Assembly: GCA_030749235.1 (NCBI GenBank)
Contig: JASMKM010000013.1
Coordinates: forward strand, 41,717-105,716
Length of the DNA: 64,000 nt
Reading direction: 5' to 3'
Source of the DNA: Planctomycetota bacterium
GTDB taxonomy: Bacteria; Planctomycetota; UBA1135
In this document: positions 4,857 to 34,407 of the stretch, piece by piece
Numbering within the stretch: the first letter of the stretch is position 1
Layout: each line of letters starts with the position of its first letter
The notes under the pieces: model-generated
The model's input: the letters and a program-made list of their open reading frames with translations, nothing else
The model's database searches: none
What the model was told of the DNA's origin: nothing
Program-made: the position numbers and the translations under genes

Positions 4857-5678
4857 ATGTTTAGCAAAGCAATTCTTTTAGGCGCAGTAGCACTTGCAGG
4901 CGTCGCACCACTGTCCGCGCAAGTAGAGGCTTCTCCCGAAGCAGCTCCCGAAGCAGCTCTAATGAACAAGGGAACTCAGGCGGTCGCCAAGAACGTGCCG
5001 AAGATCCTTGCCTCCTCCTTCCAAAGCACCTTCGCGATTGATGTCTTCGGCGCAGACGCAGACGCAGAGGATAAGAAGGAGCAGTCCATGAACTTCACCG
5101 TGAAGTTCCAGGACATGAAGAACTGGGCATTGGAGATCTCCATGACCGCCGAGGACGAGTTCGAAGGTGAGGTCACCCAGACGTTCACCGTGATGGCCGA
5201 CGGTTCCTACCTTTACCTGGATTCCCCAGACATCGCCACGATGAGCCAGGGTTTCTTGAACGGTCCAGCAAAGTTGGAACTCGGATTCGTTGAGAAGATG
5301 ATGAAAGCCGAAATGGATTTCGACCTCAACGATGGTGAAGGTGCCAGGTCTAAGCTGAGTGAGGCACTCGGTCAGCTCAGCTTCAAGGAAGAAGGTAGTA
5401 CCGAAGGCAAGCGCCGCTTCCTGATGAATGAGGCGCCCATGACCGGCTTCATGGTCTTCAGCGCCGAGAACTGGTTCTTGGAAAACGCCGAGGTCAACGC
5501 CCCAGGCATGAAGGCCGTCATCAAGGCCAGCGATTCCGCCAAGGTCAAGGAGTGGCCAGAAGGCACCTTCACCTTCAAGCCTGCGGAAGGCGTCGTCGTC
5601 ACTGACGTAACCTCCATGCTTCAGGGCATGATGGGCGGCATGGGCGGCATGGAGCCCGAGGAAGACCTCGAATTCTAA
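4857..5678 (+). CDS. Secreted protein P1 of a paralog array (signal peptide; tail ...GMMGGMGGMEPEEDLEF)
   Basis: Start at ATG 4857 gives signal peptide MFSKAILLGAVALAGVAPLSAQ. The protein is acidic with a Met/Gly-rich C-terminal tail ending L-E-F. It is followed by a strong terminator. Confidence 0.75.
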   Translation: MFSKAILLGAVALAGVAPLSAQVEASPEAAPEAALMNKGTQAVAKNVPKILASSFQSTFAIDVFGADADAEDKKEQSMNFTVKFQDMKNWALEISMTAEDEFEGEVTQTFTVMADGSYLYLDSPDIATMSQGFLNGPAKLELGFVEKMMKAEMDFDLNDGEGARSKLSEALGQLSFKEEGSTEGKRRFLMNEAPMTGFMVFSAENWFLENAEVNAPGMKAVIKASDSAKVKEWPEGTFTFKPAEGVVVTDVTSMLQGMMGGMGGMEPEEDLEF

Positions 5679-5697
5679 GTTCGGTCCACACCCACCC

Positions 5698-5736
5698 GGC
5701 GGGTGCCCCAGACCCGGGGCGCCCGCCTTTTTTTTT
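5698..5736 (+). terminator. Rho-independent terminator between P1 and P2
   Basis: 12-bp GC-rich stem (GGCGGGTGCCCC / GGGGCGCCCGCC, one G-U pair), 6-nt loop, then a run of nine T (5728-5736). Confidence 0.8.
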
Positions 5737-5746
5737 GAGAGTTCAG

Positions 5747-6769
5747 ATGAAGTCTAAGTTCAGCTTCCTACTGCTGGCGTTTGGTGCCTGCACCACACCT
5801 TCAGAGAATCCTGATCCGCTGGCATCGGGCCTGCAGAATGCGAATGAGGTCCAGATCGAGCCAGAGACCTATGCGGAATGGGTGGATAGCCTGCCGGCGC
5901 ATTCCTTGGATTCGACGACCTTTCGCACCAGCGCACAGGGCAAGATTGGGGTGCAAATTCAAGAGGATGGCATGAACATGAACCTGGATATCCAACTCGG
6001 CATCGAGGTGGATTACCTTGACTTGCGCCACTTCCGCGAGGACATCTGGGTGCACGTCGCACTGCCCGATATTCCCGACTTTGCTGGCTTCGAGGATTTG
6101 AGCTTCGCAATCAAGCTTCTCGCCGATGGCGAGAAGCTGTACATAACCCCGGAGTTCCAGGATGACCTGCTCGGCGCGCAGATTGAGGCTGCCGACATCG
6201 GCATCGAGGACATGATTTTGACTCTCGACGCCGACCTGTTCGAGGACCTGATGAGAGTTTATTGGGTGGCCCTGGAAGACGTCGACGTGGATCTTTCTGC
6301 CTTCTTGCCTGAAGGCATGACGGTTGACGAGTTCTTTGAGCGCGGTCTCAATCCGGCTGGTTGGGCGCGCGCTTATATGATGACTTCGAACATCCTCGAC
6401 TTCGTGGTGGACAGCAATGAGGTTCGCATCAAGGCCCAGATGAAGGAGGAACTGTTCGGCAATGCCTTGCTGCTCATGCCCGAACAGAGTCAGATTCTCG
6501 ACGACCTCACTTATGAGATGAGCTTCAACCGCTACTCCGGGCTACCGGCCAGCATGGAGATGGATATGAAGGTCGACGAGATGGTGCAGATGCTGTTCGA
6601 GCTTGACTTTACTGAATTCGAGATGGGCATCGACCTCTTCACGCCCGCGGACTTCAGTGCCGCGCATCTGGACCAGAAGCACTTCTTCCCGGTGGACACC
6701 TTCATCCAGATGGCACTCGCCTCCATTCAAGCGACGATGAACAACGATGATGGCGACATGGCTTTCTAG
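5747..6769 (+). CDS. Lipoprotein P2 of the paralog array (tail ...MNNDDGDMAF)
   Basis: ATG 5747 gives MKSKFSFLLLAFGAC (lipobox LAFGAC). The TTG at 5735 in the ORF track lies inside the terminator T-run. The protein is very acidic and Met-rich and ends M-A-F. Confidence 0.75.
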   Translation: MKSKFSFLLLAFGACTTPSENPDPLASGLQNANEVQIEPETYAEWVDSLPAHSLDSTTFRTSAQGKIGVQIQEDGMNMNLDIQLGIEVDYLDLRHFREDIWVHVALPDIPDFAGFEDLSFAIKLLADGEKLYITPEFQDDLLGAQIEAADIGIEDMILTLDADLFEDLMRVYWVALEDVDVDLSAFLPEGMTVDEFFERGLNPAGWARAYMMTSNILDFVVDSNEVRIKAQMKEELFGNALLLMPEQSQILDDLTYEMSFNRYSGLPASMEMDMKVDEMVQMLFELDFTEFEMGIDLFTPADFSAAHLDQKHFFPVDTFIQMALASIQATMNNDDGDMAF

Positions 6770-20923: not shown

Positions 20924-21012
20924 GCCGGGATGGCGGAATTGGCAGACGCGCATGGTTGAGGGCCATGTTGGGATAATACCCAGTGCAGGTTCGACCCCTG
21001 TTCCCGGCACCA
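20924..21012 (+). tRNA. tRNA-Leu (anticodon GAG), type II with long variable arm, CCA encoded
   Basis: Acceptor GCCGGGA pairs with TCCCGGC. Anticodon stem CATGG/CCATG with loop TTGAGGG (anticodon GAG). Long variable arm TTGGGATAATACCCAGT. T-loop GGTTCGACC. Discriminator A at 21009 followed by CCA. Confidence 0.9.
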
Positions 21013-25972: not shown

Positions 25973-27628
25973 CTAGAAGCCGCCCATGCCACCCATTCCG
26001 CCCATGCCACCCATCGGGTCGCCGCCACCGGCAGGCATCGGAGGAACAGCTTCCTTGATCTCGGAGACAATCGCCTCGGTGGTGAGCAACAAGGTGCTGA
26101 CCGAGGAGGCATTCTGCAGGGTAGTGCGCACGACCTTGGTCGGGTCGATGATGCCAGTTTCGATCATGTTGACGTATTCGCCGGTCGCGGCGTTGTAGCC
26201 CTTGGCAAAGGATTTGGCGGAGCGGACCTTATCGACGACCAAGGAACCATCCACACCAGCGTTGCTGGCGATCTGACGGATCGGAGCCTCGAGTGCGCGC
26301 GAGATGATCTCGGCACCGGCCTTCTGGTCACCACTCAAGTCGAGCTTGGCGATGCCAGCTTGTGCGCGCAGCAAGGAAGTACCGCCACCAGGCAGCACAC
26401 CCTCTTCCGCGGCGGCACGGACTGAAGCGAGCGCGTCCTCAACGCGATCCTTCTTCTCCTTCATCTCGGCTTCTGTTGCTGCGCCGACGTTCAGCACTGC
26501 GACGCCACCGGACAACTTGGCTAGGCGCTCCATCAACTTCTCGCGATCGTACTCGCTCGAAGTGCGTTCGATCTCGGCGCGGATTTGCTCCATGCGATCC
26601 TTAATCGCGGCCTTGGAACCTGCACCCTCGACGATGGTGGTGGACTCCTTGGTGATTACGACGCGCTTAGCGCGACCAAGGTGCTCCACTTCCGTGGTCT
26701 CGAGCTTCATGCCCAAGTCCTCGACAATGGCGGAACCACCGGTCAAAATCGCGATGTCTTCCATCATCGACTTGCGACGATCACCGAAGCCAGGTGCCTT
26801 CACAGCAGCACACTTGAAGATGCCCCGCAGCTTGTTGACGACCAAGGTTGCTAGGGCCTCGCCCTCGACGTCCTCGGCGATGATCAACAACGGCTTGCTG
26901 GACTTGGCGACGGCCTCGAGCACAGGCAGCATGTCGCGCACGTTGGCAATCTTCTTCTCGAAGATCAGAATGTAGGCATCTTCGAGCTCGGCTTCCATCT
27001 TCTCCATGTTGGTGGAGAAGTGCGGCGACAGGTAACCCTTGTCGAACTGCATGCCTTCGACCCACTCAATCTCGGTGTCGAGCGAACGGCCTTCTTCGAC
27101 GGTGATGACACCATCCTTGCCGACGCGATCAAAAGCCTCGGCCAACTTCGAACCGATTTCGGTGTCGTTATTGGCAGCGATGGCTGCGACCTGCTCGATT
27201 TCCGTCGTGCTCTTGACCTTGGTCGACTTCTTCGTCAGAAAGCTGACGACCGAATCGACCGCGGCTTCCATGCCACGCTTCAGCTCGACTGGGTTGGCGC
27301 CAGCAGCGACGTTGCGCAGGCCTTCCTCGAAGATGGCTTCGGCAAGCACGGTTGCCGAAGTGGTGCCATCGCCAGCGATGTCACTGGTCTTGGCGGAAAC
27401 CTGACGCACCAGCTGTGCGCCGATGTTCTCGTAGGCGTCTTCGAGCTCAATCTCGCGGGCCACCGATACACCATCCTTGGTGACGGTTGGGGTGCCGAAG
27501 CTCTTCTCGATGATGACGTTGCGACCACGTGGGCCGAGGGTGACCTTCACAGCAGCAGCAAGCTTCTGTACGCCGGCGCGGATTCCGTCGCGGGCTTCCT
27601 GGTCAAATGCGATTTTCTTAGCAGCCAT
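25973..27628 (-). CDS. groL: Chaperonin GroEL (Hsp60)
   Basis: Full-length GroEL: [12 protein letters not shown]..., [23 protein letters not shown], and a C-terminal [12 protein letters not shown] repeat. Confidence 0.97.
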
Positions 27629-27637
27629 GATTTTGTC

Positions 27638-27946
27638 CTAGCCAATGATTCCGAGGATGTCGTTCTCGGACATGATGAGGTACTCGACGCCTTCCCACTC
27701 GACTTCAGTGCCGGCGTAGGAGGTGAACAGCACGGTGTTACCCACGCCAACGGTGAACTCGGTGCGGGAGCCATCCTCGAGCAAGCGGCCTTCGCCGAGT
27801 GCGATGATGGTGCCTTCAGCAGGCTTCTCCTTTGCGGAGTCAGGCAGCACGATGCCACCGGCAGAGATGTCAGCAGCTGCGAGGCGCTGGACGAGGACTT
27901 TGTCGCCCAGTGGGCGGATTGCGACTTTCTTGGCGGTCTTGGCCAT
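27638..27946 (-). CDS. groS: Co-chaperonin GroES (Hsp10)
   Basis: 102-aa ORF with IRPLGDKVLVQR and the mobile-loop region, 9 nt upstream of groEL. Confidence 0.95.
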   Translation of the reverse strand: MAKTAKKVAIRPLGDKVLVQRLAAADISAGGIVLPDSAKEKPAEGTIIALGEGRLLEDGSRTEFTVGVGNTVLFTSYAGTEVEWEGVEYLIMSENDILGIIG

Positions 27947-30435: not shown

Positions 30436-30472
30436 AAAAATGAAGGGAGGCCGGGAAAAATCCCGGCCTCCC
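30436..30472 (-). terminator. Rho-independent terminator after the metalloprotease gene
   Basis: Perfect 12-bp stem GGGAGGCCGGGA/TCCCGGCCTCCC with a 4-nt loop. On the minus strand it is followed by TTCATTTTT. Confidence 0.75.
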
Positions 30473-30492
30473 TAGTAAAGGAAGTTCCTTCC

Positions 30493-31782
30493 TTAGTTGA
30501 TGCTCACGGTGACCGTGTTGGAGTTGTAGATGTCCGTGCCATCCACAATCTGCATTTCGACGTAGGCAGTGCGGCCAGCACCACGGCTAGGAATGAGCTT
30601 GTTGTAGGAGCCGATTCCAGACGAGGTGGTAGCACCCGTACCGACAATACCGTTCCAGGTAGTGAAGAGAGGGCTGCCATCAGTGAAGGAGTAGACGATG
30701 GTGTACGACTTGTTCGCAGGAGCACCGGTCCAGCTGAGGGTAACCAGCTGACCTGGGTTTGGCGTGGAGTCGCTGATGGTCATCGCGATGGTGTCGTTCG
30801 CCAAGCCGCCGCCGTTGCCACCGAATGGGTGACTCTCGGACAGGCTGCTGCCGCCAGAAGCGTTGGACTGAACGTGGATCGCACCACCTTCCCAACCACC
30901 GGTAGGCAGGGTCATGTTAATGACAGTGCCACCGCTGCTAGAAGCAAGGCCATTAACCTTCACCATTTCGCCACCAGAGTTGGAGCCGTTGAGAGTGTTG
31001 CTCTGCAGCCACAGGGTGTTGCCCGTGGAGGAGAAGTTCGTACCGGTGATGGTGATGTTGCCGCCAAGGGTCATGTTGCCGGTGATATTCGTGATGGAGG
31101 GCATCGAGGCACTGCGGGTGCCGTAGATGAATTTCACACCATTGCTGTCATCGGAAGCGATTGAACGGTTTGCATTACCGGTACCAATCGCGTAGGCGTA
31201 CATGGTGGCCGAGCTGCTGCTCGAGTGACCGAGACCCAACGCGTGGCCGAGCTCATGACAACCAATACCTTGAATGTCCTGACCACTGCCCACGTTGTTT
31301 GGGCCGTCCTGCCAGTTCCACGCGTCGCCGTAGAAGCGGATGCGCCAACCGTTGCTAATCGGGGTCTCGCAGTAGGCGAGGACACCACCCGAAGAGCCGC
31401 CGAGGGAGGAGATGATGTTGTCATTTCCGCCACCGACGCCACTGGCGTTACCGTTCCAAACGAAGCTGAAGTTGGCGCCGCCGGAGCCGACGGTGCTTTG
31501 GGAGGAGTCACCCGTACCGTCACCGTGAGCGCGCGAGCCCCACTCTGCACCACCTTTCCACAGCGCGAGTTCTGCGCCATCGTAGTCAGGCCAGTTCGGG
31601 TGGATGGTGTTGTTGTTGTTGGCGCTGGAGCCGTTGAAGTTGTTGAACACGCGGAAATCGCGCTGTGCCAAACCGAGGCTACCACCGATGGTGCTGTAAC
31701 CCTCAGCTTCCTGCGGAGCGACAACCATGGCGGAGCCGACTAGCAAGGAGCTACCGATTGCGAGACGTAGGACGTTTTTCAT
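30493..31782 (-). CDS. Secreted matrixin-type (M10-like) zinc metalloprotease with C-terminal Ig-like domains
   Basis: Signal peptide, then HELGHALGLGHS (HExxHxxGxxH followed by Ser, the matrixin signature) and Met-turn ATMYA. The C-terminal half has repeated beta-rich Ig-like segments (ITITGTNFS, VTLSWTG). No PRCGxPD cysteine-switch propeptide is visible. Confidence 0.85.
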   Translation of the reverse strand: MKNVLRLAIGSSLLVGSAMVVAPQEAEGYSTIGGSLGLAQRDFRVFNNFNGSSANNNNTIHPNWPDYDGAELALWKGGAEWGSRAHGDGTGDSSQSTVGSGGANFSFVWNGNASGVGGGNDNIISSLGGSSGGVLAYCETPISNGWRIRFYGDAWNWQDGPNNVGSGQDIQGIGCHELGHALGLGHSSSSSATMYAYAIGTGNANRSIASDDSNGVKFIYGTRSASMPSITNITGNMTLGGNITITGTNFSSTGNTLWLQSNTLNGSNSGGEMVKVNGLASSSGGTVINMTLPTGGWEGGAIHVQSNASGGSSLSESHPFGGNGGGLANDTIAMTISDSTPNPGQLVTLSWTGAPANKSYTIVYSFTDGSPLFTTWNGIVGTGATTSSGIGSYNKLIPSRGAGRTAYVEMQIVDGTDIYNSNTVTVSIN

Positions 31783-32315
31783 CGCTGGGCCTCCTGAATG
31801 TTGTTGATTTCGCTCTTGAGGTTGCTCACACGAATGTTGCCTTCAACTGCGAAGCCTTTGCCTTTGCCGAGCACCACGGGACCCTTCTTAGTATCGATGG
31901 TGCGGAAGATGCCGCCCATAGAAGCGTAGACGCAGTGGTCAATTTCAGGACCCCAACCCTCAACCATGCCACGGAAGACAACGACTTCGTTGTCCAGGCG
32001 GTACTCGGAGGGTGCAGGCATCGAAGTGACCATCATCGAGTCGCCTTCGAAGGTACCGCCCAAGAAGGCGGCCTCTACAGTCGTGGTGTTTCCGGTATAA
32101 AGGTCTTCACCTTCAACGGTAAGGATGGTGTAGATGAGTCGGTCATCGCCTTCAGGGACGAAGCGCACAGTGCGCACGTCGGTGATGGTTCCGTGGACCG
32201 CAGAATCGGTCTTTGAAATCATCTTGGCAAGATCCAACTCCTCGATGCACGCGGAGCCACCCTGAACAAGCAGGACAGTCAAAGCCGCGGCGAGTAGCCA
32301 GCGAAGTGTTTTCAT
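31779..32315 (-). CDS. Small secreted two-cysteine protein translationally coupled to the matrixin-like protease (candidate inhibitor/partner)
   Basis: Start at ATG 32315 gives MKTLRWLLAAALTVLLVQGGSA|C. The stop overlaps the protease start (ATGA at 31779-31782). It contains only two Cys, at predicted mature residue 1 and in IDHCVY. Confidence 0.65.
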   Translation of the reverse strand: MKTLRWLLAAALTVLLVQGGSACIEELDLAKMISKTDSAVHGTITDVRTVRFVPEGDDRLIYTILTVEGEDLYTGNTTTVEAAFLGGTFEGDSMMVTSMPAPSEYRLDNEVVVFRGMVEGWGPEIDHCVYASMGGIFRTIDTKKGPVVLGKGKGFAVEGNIRVSNLKSEINNIQEAQR

Positions 32316-32601
32316 CAGTAGGGAGTTACTAGGGAATCGGGTTGTGTTCAGAGCCAACAGCTAGGCTCCGTCACTATGAGGGACACGTGACGAACCGCTC
32401 AGGTTCCCCCAAATTCACGTTTCTGGGCCTTCTGCGGTTCCTTGGAGGGGTGGAGGATGCTTATTTGTACCAGACAAAACGCCCAATTAATGCGGATTTC
32501 TAGCTGGAGCCATATTTTCAACCCGTATTTCGGCATGGGTTCTGGTGCCTCTGAGCAAGATTTCTACGCCAACGGGCAAATTTTCGTGGCAGAATAGGAG
32601 C

Positions 32602-34407
32602 ATGCAACGTTTGTTGATTCCCCTCGCCTGCGCAGCTGGTCTCGGTATCGGTCTGCTCACACGTGCTGACGCCGGATCCGCGGCCATCGAATTGGGTCCT
32701 TCCCATGTCGAGATCCTGCCCTTTGGCCTTCTTGACGAAGTGCGCCGCGCCGACTTGGTCGTCCCCATGCAAGTTCAGCTCTACAACTCTGGTTCCGCTG
32801 GCGTGGAACTCGTGGACCTGGTCATCCAGACTCCAGAGGGTGAGCTCATTGGCTCCCGCACCTTGGATGATCGCGCGCTTGCCGGAGACCATGGTTTCCT
32901 GAACGACCTTTACCTGGAGATGGAGCGCACCGACCCGGATTTCAGTCACCGTCACACGAAGCGCCTGTTCATTCCGCTCGAGGAATACGAGCCGCTCGGT
33001 CCTGAGGGCGAAGCAGAAGCCATGCGCCGGGTGCTGCAAGGAGTCTCGGAACTGAAGCAGAGCGGCGCGCCGCAAATTTACGACGCCCAGTTCGAAGTCG
33101 ACTTGGCGGCCCTGTTCGGCCCGGAGCCCCAAGTAGGAGATGTCGCGCCTTTCGAGATTATCGTGACTTGGTTCGATGGCACGAATCGCCAGAGCAATAA
33201 CTTGTCGCGCACAATCACCATTTTGGCGCCGTTTCGCCCAGCGCCTCCTGGACATTGGAGCTACAACCGTGGCGTCGGCAGTTGGATGACCGGCGACCTG
33301 CATGTGCACAACTGCCGTGACGAGGCGATCAATGGCTGTGACTCCTGTGCAGCTGAGTCGGTCAACATCACTGGTTCCTTTACCAACGCGCAGCTGAAAC
33401 CGCAGTTCCAGGCCCTGGGCTTTGACTTCTTCAGCTCCACCACCCACAGCTACTGCATCAACAGCGATGCCGAGTTCAATGCTGTGGTTGCCGAGGCCGC
33501 AGCCTTGACCGACCCGAGCTTCGTGATGCTCGCCAGCACTGAGGTCTCAGGTCGTGAGACTGGGGTGCAGTCGGGCAGTGATAGTTCCACCGCATTGTGC
33601 CTGCTCGGCTTCTCCGGCAATGAAGTGCACCACATGGGTGCGCACCACATCACCTCGCGTAAACCAGGCGGCCGTCAGGGCTTCTTGGATTTCTGCGACG
33701 ATCCGCTGTATAGCCAAGCCGTCAATTACAACGACGTCAACAGTGAAGGCGGTTTCGCTGTGATTAACCACCCAGCGTCGAGCATGTGGGGCTTCAACAG
33801 TCTTGCCGACCTCACTGGCCAAGAGCGCAACAACGCTTGGGGTGTGGAAGTCTGGAACGGCTCTGAAGGCGCCAACAACTTCCAGACCTTCCATCGCAAC
33901 TGGTGGGTGGCACGCATGGTGGGTGGAAAGCTGCTCTACCCTTACTCTGGCAGCGATACTCACGATTCAGCATATAACTTTGGCGCCACGCATACCTACG
34001 TGAACGGTCCACTGAATGGCGATTCGGTCAACGAGGCCCTCAAGTCCGGCATGAACTACTTGTCGAACGGTCCTTTCCTCGACATCAGCATCAGTGATAA
34101 CGGTGGTCGCGGCTTGGGCATGGGTGAAGTCTTTAGTGTGCGCGGCAGTTTGGTTCCGAACAACTACCCAATCACCATCTCGGTGCCTTACAACGTCGAC
34201 CAGAACGGCTCGACCATCGATATCTATCGTGGTGTAGTTGGCGTCGGCGAGGTGCTGGTCTCGTCGCAGAGCGGCATCACCGGCAGTGGCACCTTGACCG
34301 TGCCCGACACCCTGCCACAAAGCACCTGTTGGTATCGTGCCGAGGTACGCAACACCATCCTTACGGAATCCGCGTTGACCACGCCGGTGTTCGTTCACAT
34401 GTTCTAG
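32602..34407 (+). CDS. Secreted PHP-domain metallohydrolase (CehA/McbA-like)
   Basis: Start at ATG 32602 (MQRLLIPLACAAGLGIG signal). His-rich PHP-type motifs GDLHVHNC, STTHSYC, NEVHHMGAHH and GSDTHD. Confidence 0.65.
   Translation: MQRLLIPLACAAGLGIGLLTRADAGSAAIELGPSHVEILPFGLLDEVRRADLVVPMQVQLYNSGSAGVELVDLVIQTPEGELIGSRTLDDRALAGDHGFLNDLYLEMERTDPDFSHRHTKRLFIPLEEYEPLGPEGEAEAMRRVLQGVSELKQSGAPQIYDAQFEVDLAALFGPEPQVGDVAPFEIIVTWFDGTNRQSNNLSRTITILAPFRPAPPGHWSYNRGVGSWMTGDLHVHNCRDEAINGCDSCAAESVNITGSFTNAQLKPQFQALGFDFFSSTTHSYCINSDAEFNAVVAEAAALTDPSFVMLASTEVSGRETGVQSGSDSSTALCLLGFSGNEVHHMGAHHITSRKPGGRQGFLDFCDDPLYSQAVNYNDVNSEGGFAVINHPASSMWGFNSLADLTGQERNNAWGVEVWNGSEGANNFQTFHRNWWVARMVGGKLLYPYSGSDTHDSAYNFGATHTYVNGPLNGDSVNEALKSGMNYLSNGPFLDISISDNGGRGLGMGEVFSVRGSLVPNNYPITISVPYNVDQNGSTIDIYRGVVGVGEVLVSSQSGITGSGTLTVPDTLPQSTCWYRAEVRNTILTESALTTPVFVHMF

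Follow-up and report, generated by a model that had tools for sequence, protein, structure and literature searches.

A family of small exported proteins encoded with propeptide-less matrixin-type metalloproteases in Planctomycetota: candidate inhibitors or latency partners

Matrix metalloproteinases (MMPs) show cysteine-switch latency. The cysteine-switch propeptide of animal MMPs is usually missing from bacterial matrixins, and how the latter stay inactive during export is, to our knowledge, known for very few, such as karilysin with potempin A. Tissue inhibitors of metalloproteinases (TIMPs) and the Inh/AprI proteins inhibit by N-terminal insertion. Potempin A (PotA) is a protein with an oligonucleotide/oligosaccharide-binding (OB) fold whose open reading frame (ORF) overlaps or abuts the gene of the bacterial MMP karilysin, and it inhibits karilysin (PMC9890683). 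Emfourin is the operon-encoded inhibitor of protealysin (PMC9505478). Here we describe a two-gene unit from a Planctomycetota bacterium (assembly GCA_030749235.1, contig JASMKM010000013.1, positions 41,717–105,716; the whole 64,000-nucleotide stretch analyzed is called the window). Its first gene encodes a small exported protein of a new, unannotated family and its second a matrixin without a propeptide. The small protein is proposed to be a cognate inhibitor or latency partner of the matrixin, with a probability of about 0.5.

The unit comprises the following features, with positions counted in the window.

31779–32315, reverse strand: small partner gene, ATG at 32315 and stop at 31779, encoding a precursor of 178 amino acids (aa) and a mature protein of 156 aa
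32250–32315, reverse strand: signal peptide of the small protein, aa 1–22, ending GGSA/C at a predicted signal peptidase I site (the slash marks cleavage, here and below)
32220–32249, reverse strand: mature N-terminus C-I-E-E-L-D-L-A-K-M, aa 23–32, beginning exactly at the cleavage site
32247–32249, reverse strand: first Cys codon, Cys23 of the precursor (Cys1 of the mature protein)
31932–31934, reverse strand: second Cys codon, in IDHCVY, Cys128 of the precursor (Cys106 of the mature protein)
31779–31795, reverse strand: translational coupling signals, a Shine-Dalgarno sequence and a stop/start overlap
30493–31782, reverse strand: M10 matrixin-type metalloprotease gene (Pfam PF00413), an ORF of 429 aa with a signal peptide (aa 1–28), a catalytic domain (aa 29 to about 226) and two Ig-like beta-sandwiches (aa about 227 to 429)
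31222–31257, reverse strand: zinc-binding motif HELGHALGLGHS, protease aa 176–187, read from the sequence
31198–31209, reverse strand: Met-turn ATMY, protease aa 192–195
30444–30473, reverse strand: intrinsic terminator-like hairpin directly after the protease stop, with a 13-bp stem, 10 GC pairs and a T-run

The small precursor reads MKTLRWLLAAALTVLLVQGGSA/CIEELDL..., has exactly two Cys (residues 23 and 128), and is given an identical start by a JGI metagenome gene call. An AGGAGG Shine-Dalgarno sequence at 31790–31795 lies within the 3′ end of the small gene. The two genes overlap by ATGA at 31779–31782, where the small-gene stop TGA occupies 31779–31781 and the protease ATG 31780–31782. 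The overlap and the terminator-like hairpin after the protease indicate that the unit is bicistronic. The JGI call starts the protease 18 codons later (411 aa, P0236) and skips 31729–31782, so that the signal peptide is lost; the 429-aa start is favored because its MKNxLR... N-terminus is conserved in 42 orthologues and because of the ATGA overlap. The first-pass annotation, made from the sequence alone, had described an exported protein of roughly 155 residues that overlaps the protease gene by ATGA, with a signal peptide ending VQGGSA/C and one other Cys in IDHCVY. These readings are confirmed.

This arrangement resembles that of potempin A and karilysin in Tannerella forsythia, in which a small exported barrel with an OB fold is likewise encoded just upstream of an MMP-like M10 protease. 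Potempin ORFs overlap the peptidase gene or lie within 5 bp of it and are co-transcribed with it; co-transcription in the window is inferred from the overlap and the single terminator-like hairpin. Unlike the window protease, which has no propeptide, karilysin has a short one. Potempins also differ in size and range: they have 98–132 residues and occur in T. forsythia only, whereas the window family has about 156 mature residues and more than 1000 clusters in Planctomycetota metagenome-assembled genomes (MAGs).

The two genes are linked well beyond this genome. The small protein has 85 close homologue clusters at 46–95% identity, and those with a name all derive from Planctomycetota MAGs. When one genome per species was scanned, 47 small-gene loci were recovered; two of them stop at a contig edge and are uninformative. 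An M10 gene comes next on the same strand in 43 of the other 45, at a gap of −4, −1 or 0–11 nt (63 nt in one locus, L045). A profile search of 1.84 billion representatives recovered 163 relatives in the wider small family, most of which begin ...A/QIERLDLxQM. Three look-ups and a metagenome scan then yielded 85 further loci, 76 with enough downstream sequence. At these loci, outside the clade with an N-terminal Cys to which the window belongs (the Cys clade), an M10 protease of the same type directly follows the small gene in 74 of the 76. The sister clade, mostly with Gln at the same position, holds at least 951 clusters at E≤1e-10, all of them unannotated, and its named members are all Planctomycetota. 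Over all loci, most gaps fall between −4 and about 40 nt. Gene order and near-zero spacing persist in 117 of 121 informative loci, well beyond what chance would give, at identities down to about 40% and in unrelated neighborhoods, so the co-occurrence on which the first-pass proposal depended is widespread.

Loci of the Cys clade have a wider synteny in common with the window: RNase D, a CehA-like hydrolase, the pair, and then TPR, NUDIX and response regulator genes. None of the window's other neighbor genes is present at the loci outside the Cys clade, and the pair alone is therefore the conserved unit. The cassette is also duplicated as a unit, in arrays of small gene (S) and protease (P) ordered S-P-S-P, S-P-S-P-P and P-S-P-P-S. 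The two proteins diverge in parallel: identities to the window proteins correlate between small protein and catalytic domain (r=0.90, n=43). A mere sharing of a promoter by two secreted proteins without functional partnership, for example in a nutrient-scavenging regulon, would fit a link that is genomic only, and it would fit the four orphan small genes that have no protease nearby (L046, L047, L080 and L086). The order and spacing kept in unrelated neighborhoods and the duplication of the pair as a unit argue against such an arrangement, which is considered very unlikely.

Several loci carry features of their own. Tandem arrays occur at L013, L016, L085, L100, L105, L034 and L039, where some proteases are not preceded by a small gene of their own, and MAG contig QQUA01000023.1 has at least four small genes and five proteases. 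Orphans L046 and L047 have 38% identity to the window small protein and Asp at residue +1. The L047 orphan (AFA/DVMALDL; region 5118–6540, an observation that also covers L046) lies directly downstream of an M14-like zinc carboxypeptidase ORF (5118–5888) and upstream of a DUF59-like ORF; small genes of this type may have been repurposed or may partner a different metallopeptidase. L011 (JBLINB010000014.1) is titled 'Myxococcota bacterium', yet its cassette and flanking synteny are as in the Planctomycetota loci, and it is likely mis-binned or mislabeled. Inter-protein covariation was computed as mutual information with average product correction over 87 non-redundant pairs (effective number of sequences about 60). 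The top columns were protease S106 and N110 against many small-protein positions. All top pairs involve clade-defining columns, which implies phylogenetic confounding, and the signal was therefore set aside.

Profile, motif and fold all identify the protease as an M10 matrixin, apparently a complete one, and it has no propeptide. It matches Pfam Peptidase_M10 with 46.9 bits (gathering cut-off 24; E=3.4e-12), and a PF00413 match is precomputed on all 120 protease homologues listed. The zinc motif, the ATMY Met-turn and the Ser after the third zinc His are all present, as first annotated. Residues H176, E177, H180 and H186 together with T193 and M194 are invariant across 40 homologues, and the residue after the third zinc His is Ser or Thr in the partner proteases. 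The closest relatives by sequence in the Protein Data Bank (PDB) are MMP-7, MMP-14, MMP-13 and karilysin. An AlphaFold2 model built with 40 homologues as input has a pLDDT of 83.4. Foldseek aligned this model in the PDB to MMP-7 (target-normalized TM-score 0.75), to karilysin in its potempin A complex (8b2q_A; 0.74, 24% identity), and to MMP-13, MMP-12 and MMP-3 (0.65–0.72); the C-terminus (about 227–429) matched pairs of Ig domains. A protein at NCBI that is 100% identical to the protease is named 'matrixin family metalloprotease [Planctomycetota bacterium]'.

The protease lacks the cysteine-switch motif PRCGxPD and leaves no space for a propeptide. Across 42 aligned orthologues, the catalytic domain begins directly at the signal peptide cleavage site, A-x-G/[YFW], in agreement with the first annotation of a protease lacking this motif. 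Absence of the motif is compatible with assignment to M10, a family defined by its catalytic domain. In the HMMER alignment to MMP-7, the structural-zinc His segments LAHAF and DAHFD pair with LAYCE and RIRFY (protease aa 132–155, about 31318–31389), and the window matrixin apparently lacks the His ligands of the vertebrate structural zinc site. A Cys at protease position 175 (31258–31260), just before the first zinc His (C-HELGH), is found in about 80% of paired proteases, in the Cys and Gln clades alike. An intermolecular disulfide was considered and rejected: the protease Cys before HExxH is uncorrelated with Cys1 of the partner and is equally common in both clades.

Processing of the small protein was assessed from the residues around the cleavage site. 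The −3/−1 rule of signal peptidase I is satisfied by 123 of 124 Cys-clade sequences, and the classical lipobox [LVI][ASTVI][GAS]C occurs in none of the 124; the window has G-S-A-C. Lipoprotein processing, which would have removed the basis for a free N-terminal Cys as first proposed, is therefore unlikely. Position −1 is Ala in all but one of the 124. At −3 stands Gly, Ala, Ser or Thr, with no case of Leu, Val or Ile; −2 varies widely, and many of its residues are charged or polar (Arg in 23, Asn in 16, Asp in 7). The alignment of close homologues has the same pattern, with Ala −1 and Cys +1 invariant, −3 as Gly, Ala, Ser or Thr, and −2 variable. In the sister clade the cleavage position is identical and residue +1 is Gln, Ala, Ser, Lys, Glu or Met, and lipidation is possible on none of these. 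In one unusual sequence (L032, 6001–6510), Pro stands at −1 (GAALP/CIKALTL), which is unfavorable for either signal peptidase; judging by its sequence, the cleavage site may have shifted to AGA/ALPC. Candidate lipoproteins elsewhere in the window, as picked out by a crude scan, were too few to serve as a background.

An outer-membrane lipoprotein like the potempins, acylated on Cys23 after signal peptidase II cleavage and tethering or inhibiting the protease at the surface, would account for the invariant Cys +1 and Ala −1 of the window clade, and a permissive lipobox pattern is found in 23 of the 124 sequences. Potempins themselves are lipoproteins (PMC9890683). This possibility is highly improbable. 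The lipobox counts and the residues at −3 and −2 do not fit it, and the sister clade keeps the same cleavage position and protease partner with +1 residues that cannot be lipidated; even within the genome loci, L045 has Ser at +1 and retains its protease. Cys1 and Cys106 covary in the manner of a disulfide, which would exclude a thioether-linked lipid. Nor is a flexible tether predicted after the Cys, since the model places a helix six residues on.

The conserved feature is the free N-terminus, exact in both position and sequence, and Cys is its lineage-specific variant, as judged from a logo of 126 unique mature sequences. Position 1 is Gln in 69, Cys in 43 and Ala in 6. Position 2 is Ile in 122 and Val in 4, position 3 is Glu in 110, position 5 is Leu in 124, position 7 is Leu in all 126, and position 10 is Met in 123. 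Ala occupies −1 in 122 of 126, and no insertion separates the cleavage site from the motif, which reads x-I-E-x-L-D-L-x-x-M family-wide. These post-cleavage residues rank among the most strongly conserved of the small protein. The N-terminal Cys occurs in a single syntenic lineage only, and proteases of the same type accompany the larger Gln-type clade; the first-pass view of the N-terminal Cys as the defining feature of the pairing is thus too narrow.

A second Cys at mature position 106 is present in 35 of 43 Cys-clade proteins versus 1 of 69 in the Gln clade. This covariation of Cys1 and Cys106 suggests a disulfide in the window clade. The earlier idea of a Cys1 pinned by a disulfide holds to that extent; it does not hold throughout, since six of the 43 have Cys1 as their sole Cys, and no CxC is present. 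Cys1 itself occurs in 43 of 43 members. Because it is kept even in the six without another Cys, it is more than a disulfide partner in that lineage. One such role would be that of a warhead, in which a free Cys1 thiol ligates the catalytic zinc as a cysteine switch in trans and replaces PRCGxPD. The invariance of Cys1 favors this, and cysteine-switch latency in a bacterial metalloprotease has a reported precedent in mirolysin (PMC8259862). Most of the family, however, pairs with the same protease type without Cys at +1, so that the thiol cannot be the general mechanism, and the covarying second Cys in 35 of 43 suggests that the thiol is tied up in a disulfide. A thiol warhead is accordingly viewed as improbable.

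The small protein belongs to no annotated family. It matched no Pfam family at E≤0.1 and no NCBIfam model, seven distant members matched no Pfam family at E≤1, and a PDB profile search with the small protein gave nothing below E=0.3. Its AlphaFold2 model (pLDDT 88.9, pTM 0.80) is a confident beta-barrel: residues 21–28 are coil, a short helix starts at 29, and the barrel and a C-terminal helix follow. It thus represents a new unannotated family with a predicted beta-barrel and N- and C-terminal helices. The top Foldseek matches in the PDB are OB-folds (ribosomal uS12/eS23 and PriB), the best at a non-significant E=0.045. TIMP-2 in complex with MMP-13 (2e2d_C) ranks 23rd, also non-significant at E=0.22, although it has the highest query-normalized TM-score (0.39) among the 50 matches listed. 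The top 50 Foldseek matches include no potempin chain, though PotA is in the PDB (8b2q). The likeness to the OB fold of TIMPs suggested at first pass therefore stands in that the weak matches are all OB-folds and include TIMP-2; it fails in that none is significant and no TIMP/NTR sequence match exists.

The comparison with characterized inhibitors is mixed. Like the targets of TIMPs (NTR module, PF00965), the partner protease has the matrixin fold; the window small protein starts with Cys, probably disulfide-linked to an OB-like barrel, and the start of the mature protein is exact to the residue. Unlike TIMPs, it has no TIMP/NTR match in Pfam, it lacks Cys1-x-Cys3 (C-I-E in the window), and it would have no more than one N-terminal disulfide, which 8 of 43 Cys-clade proteins lack. 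Residue 1 is also not Cys in most of the small family, and the fold match has the E-value of 0.22 given above. Inh/AprI (MEROPS I38, PF02974; Pseudomonas, Serratia and Erwinia) is similarly a periplasmic barrel from a metzincin operon with signal peptidase I-type processing. Inh/AprI proteins inhibit through an N-terminal segment that enters the cleft, and their barrel is 8-stranded. The small protein differs in having no Pfam Inh match and another barrel topology; the Inh/AprI target is a type I-secreted M10B serralysin, and the inhibitor gene lies downstream of the protease gene.

The window small protein, with its signal peptidase I-type site, differs from potempins, which are outer-membrane lipoproteins. 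PotA uses two loops and an Asp on the zinc, rather than its N-terminus, to block the cleft. As to relatedness, the separation from potempins is a structural one, namely the missing match in the top 50. Emfourin (M4in) and protealysin of Serratia proteamaculans are likewise a bicistronic metalloprotease and small 1:1 inhibitor that acts at the active-site region (PMC9505478). They differ in that the protease is M4 thermolysin-like and described as intracellular and in that the inhibitor is unrelated and has no signal peptide. The small protein thus falls outside the TIMP/NTR, Inh and potempin families and may still work like them.

A protease without a propeptide needs some other latency device. 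An inhibitor is the most likely reading of the small protein because of the precedents of potempin A/karilysin, emfourin/protealysin, Inh/AprI and TIMPs. In the proposed mechanism, the translationally coupled cassette would yield the propeptide-less matrixin and the small secreted barrel in roughly equal amounts. The small protein would bind the protease 1:1 and keep the enzyme latent, either in the periplasm or close to the cell, as an inhibitor or a 'propeptide in trans'. Signal peptidase I would expose the mature N-terminus (x-Ile-Glu-x-Leu-Asp-Leu...) as the proposed contact element, and this segment would lie in the active-site cleft like the N-termini of TIMPs and serralysin inhibitors. 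Ile is a residue type that MMPs prefer in the S1′ pocket, and Ile2 would suit that hydrophobic pocket. Residue 1 would be Cys in the window lineage, usually disulfide-tied to Cys106, and mostly Gln in the sister clade. The N-terminal insertion model as a whole is tentative and rated as unlikely. It is doubtful that the family (at least 1000 clusters, from uncultured Planctomycetota) consists of convergent TIMP-style N-terminal inhibitors in which Cys1 of the window lineage is disulfide-pinned to the barrel.

Several points weigh against an inhibitor of this kind. Binding, inhibition and the role of the N-terminus are inferred, and the fold matches of the small protein are statistically insignificant. 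The shared wider synteny means that co-occurrence within the Cys clade is partly inherited. Some arrays have one small gene per two proteases, and orphan small genes exist. Residue 1 is Gln in most of the family; N-terminal Gln tends to cyclize, which would leave no free alpha-amine for strict TIMP-type chelation, in which residue 1 binds the catalytic zinc through its alpha-amine and carbonyl. Conservation of the N-terminal residues could also serve folding rather than contact, since Leu5, Leu7 and Met10 are in the first part of a helix that packs against the barrel in the model.

The small protein could instead be a non-inhibitory helper made 1:1 with the protease: a folding or secretion chaperone, a surrogate for a prodomain foldase, or a subunit that recruits substrate or surface. 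In secreted proteases the prodomain often serves as a foldase, and this protease lacks one. Synteny, coupling and parallel divergence fit a helper equally well, and one small gene can precede two protease genes. The characterized small proteins co-transcribed with bacterial metalloproteases, on the other hand, proved to be inhibitors (PMC9890683, PMC9505478), and PotA reportedly plays no part in prokarilysin secretion or maturation (PMC9890683). A residue-exact free N-terminus is no obvious requirement of a chaperone. A helper role is possible but not probable, and the cognate inhibitor or latency partner is retained as the preferred reading.

Outside the unit, a divergent 620-aa exported protein is encoded at 32545–34407 on the forward strand. 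It has a CehA/McbA metallohydrolase domain (NF038032, 84.7 bits against a cut-off of 80) and matches no Pfam family. A CehA/McbA-like gene is present in 21 of 47 Cys-clade loci, where it adjoins the pair in the closest ones, and in no Gln-clade locus. A single tRNA-Leu(GAG) was detected at 20924–21012 using ARAGORN, and groES/groEL lie at 25973–27946 on the reverse strand. An Rfam scan of the whole window gave no family at gathering score.

The first-pass annotation had called the combination a new pairing, which is overstated: a small exported inhibitor encoded by a gene overlapping that of a bacterial MMP is not new, given potempin A and karilysin (PMC9890683). The literature search found no description of the partner family in Planctomycetes or with bacterial MMPs. 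What is new is the small-protein family, its size and phyletic range, and its residue-exact N-terminus. A propeptide-less matrixin is tied to this one unannotated family across more than 100 independent loci. If the proposed role is true, the family would be a new and abundant one of protein metalloprotease inhibitors and a new MEROPS inhibitor family, possibly convergent with TIMPs and able to supply scaffolds for MMP-directed inhibitors. It would answer how bacterial MMPs without a cysteine switch are kept latent, and it would give a function to hundreds of 'hypothetical proteins' in Planctomycetota MAGs.

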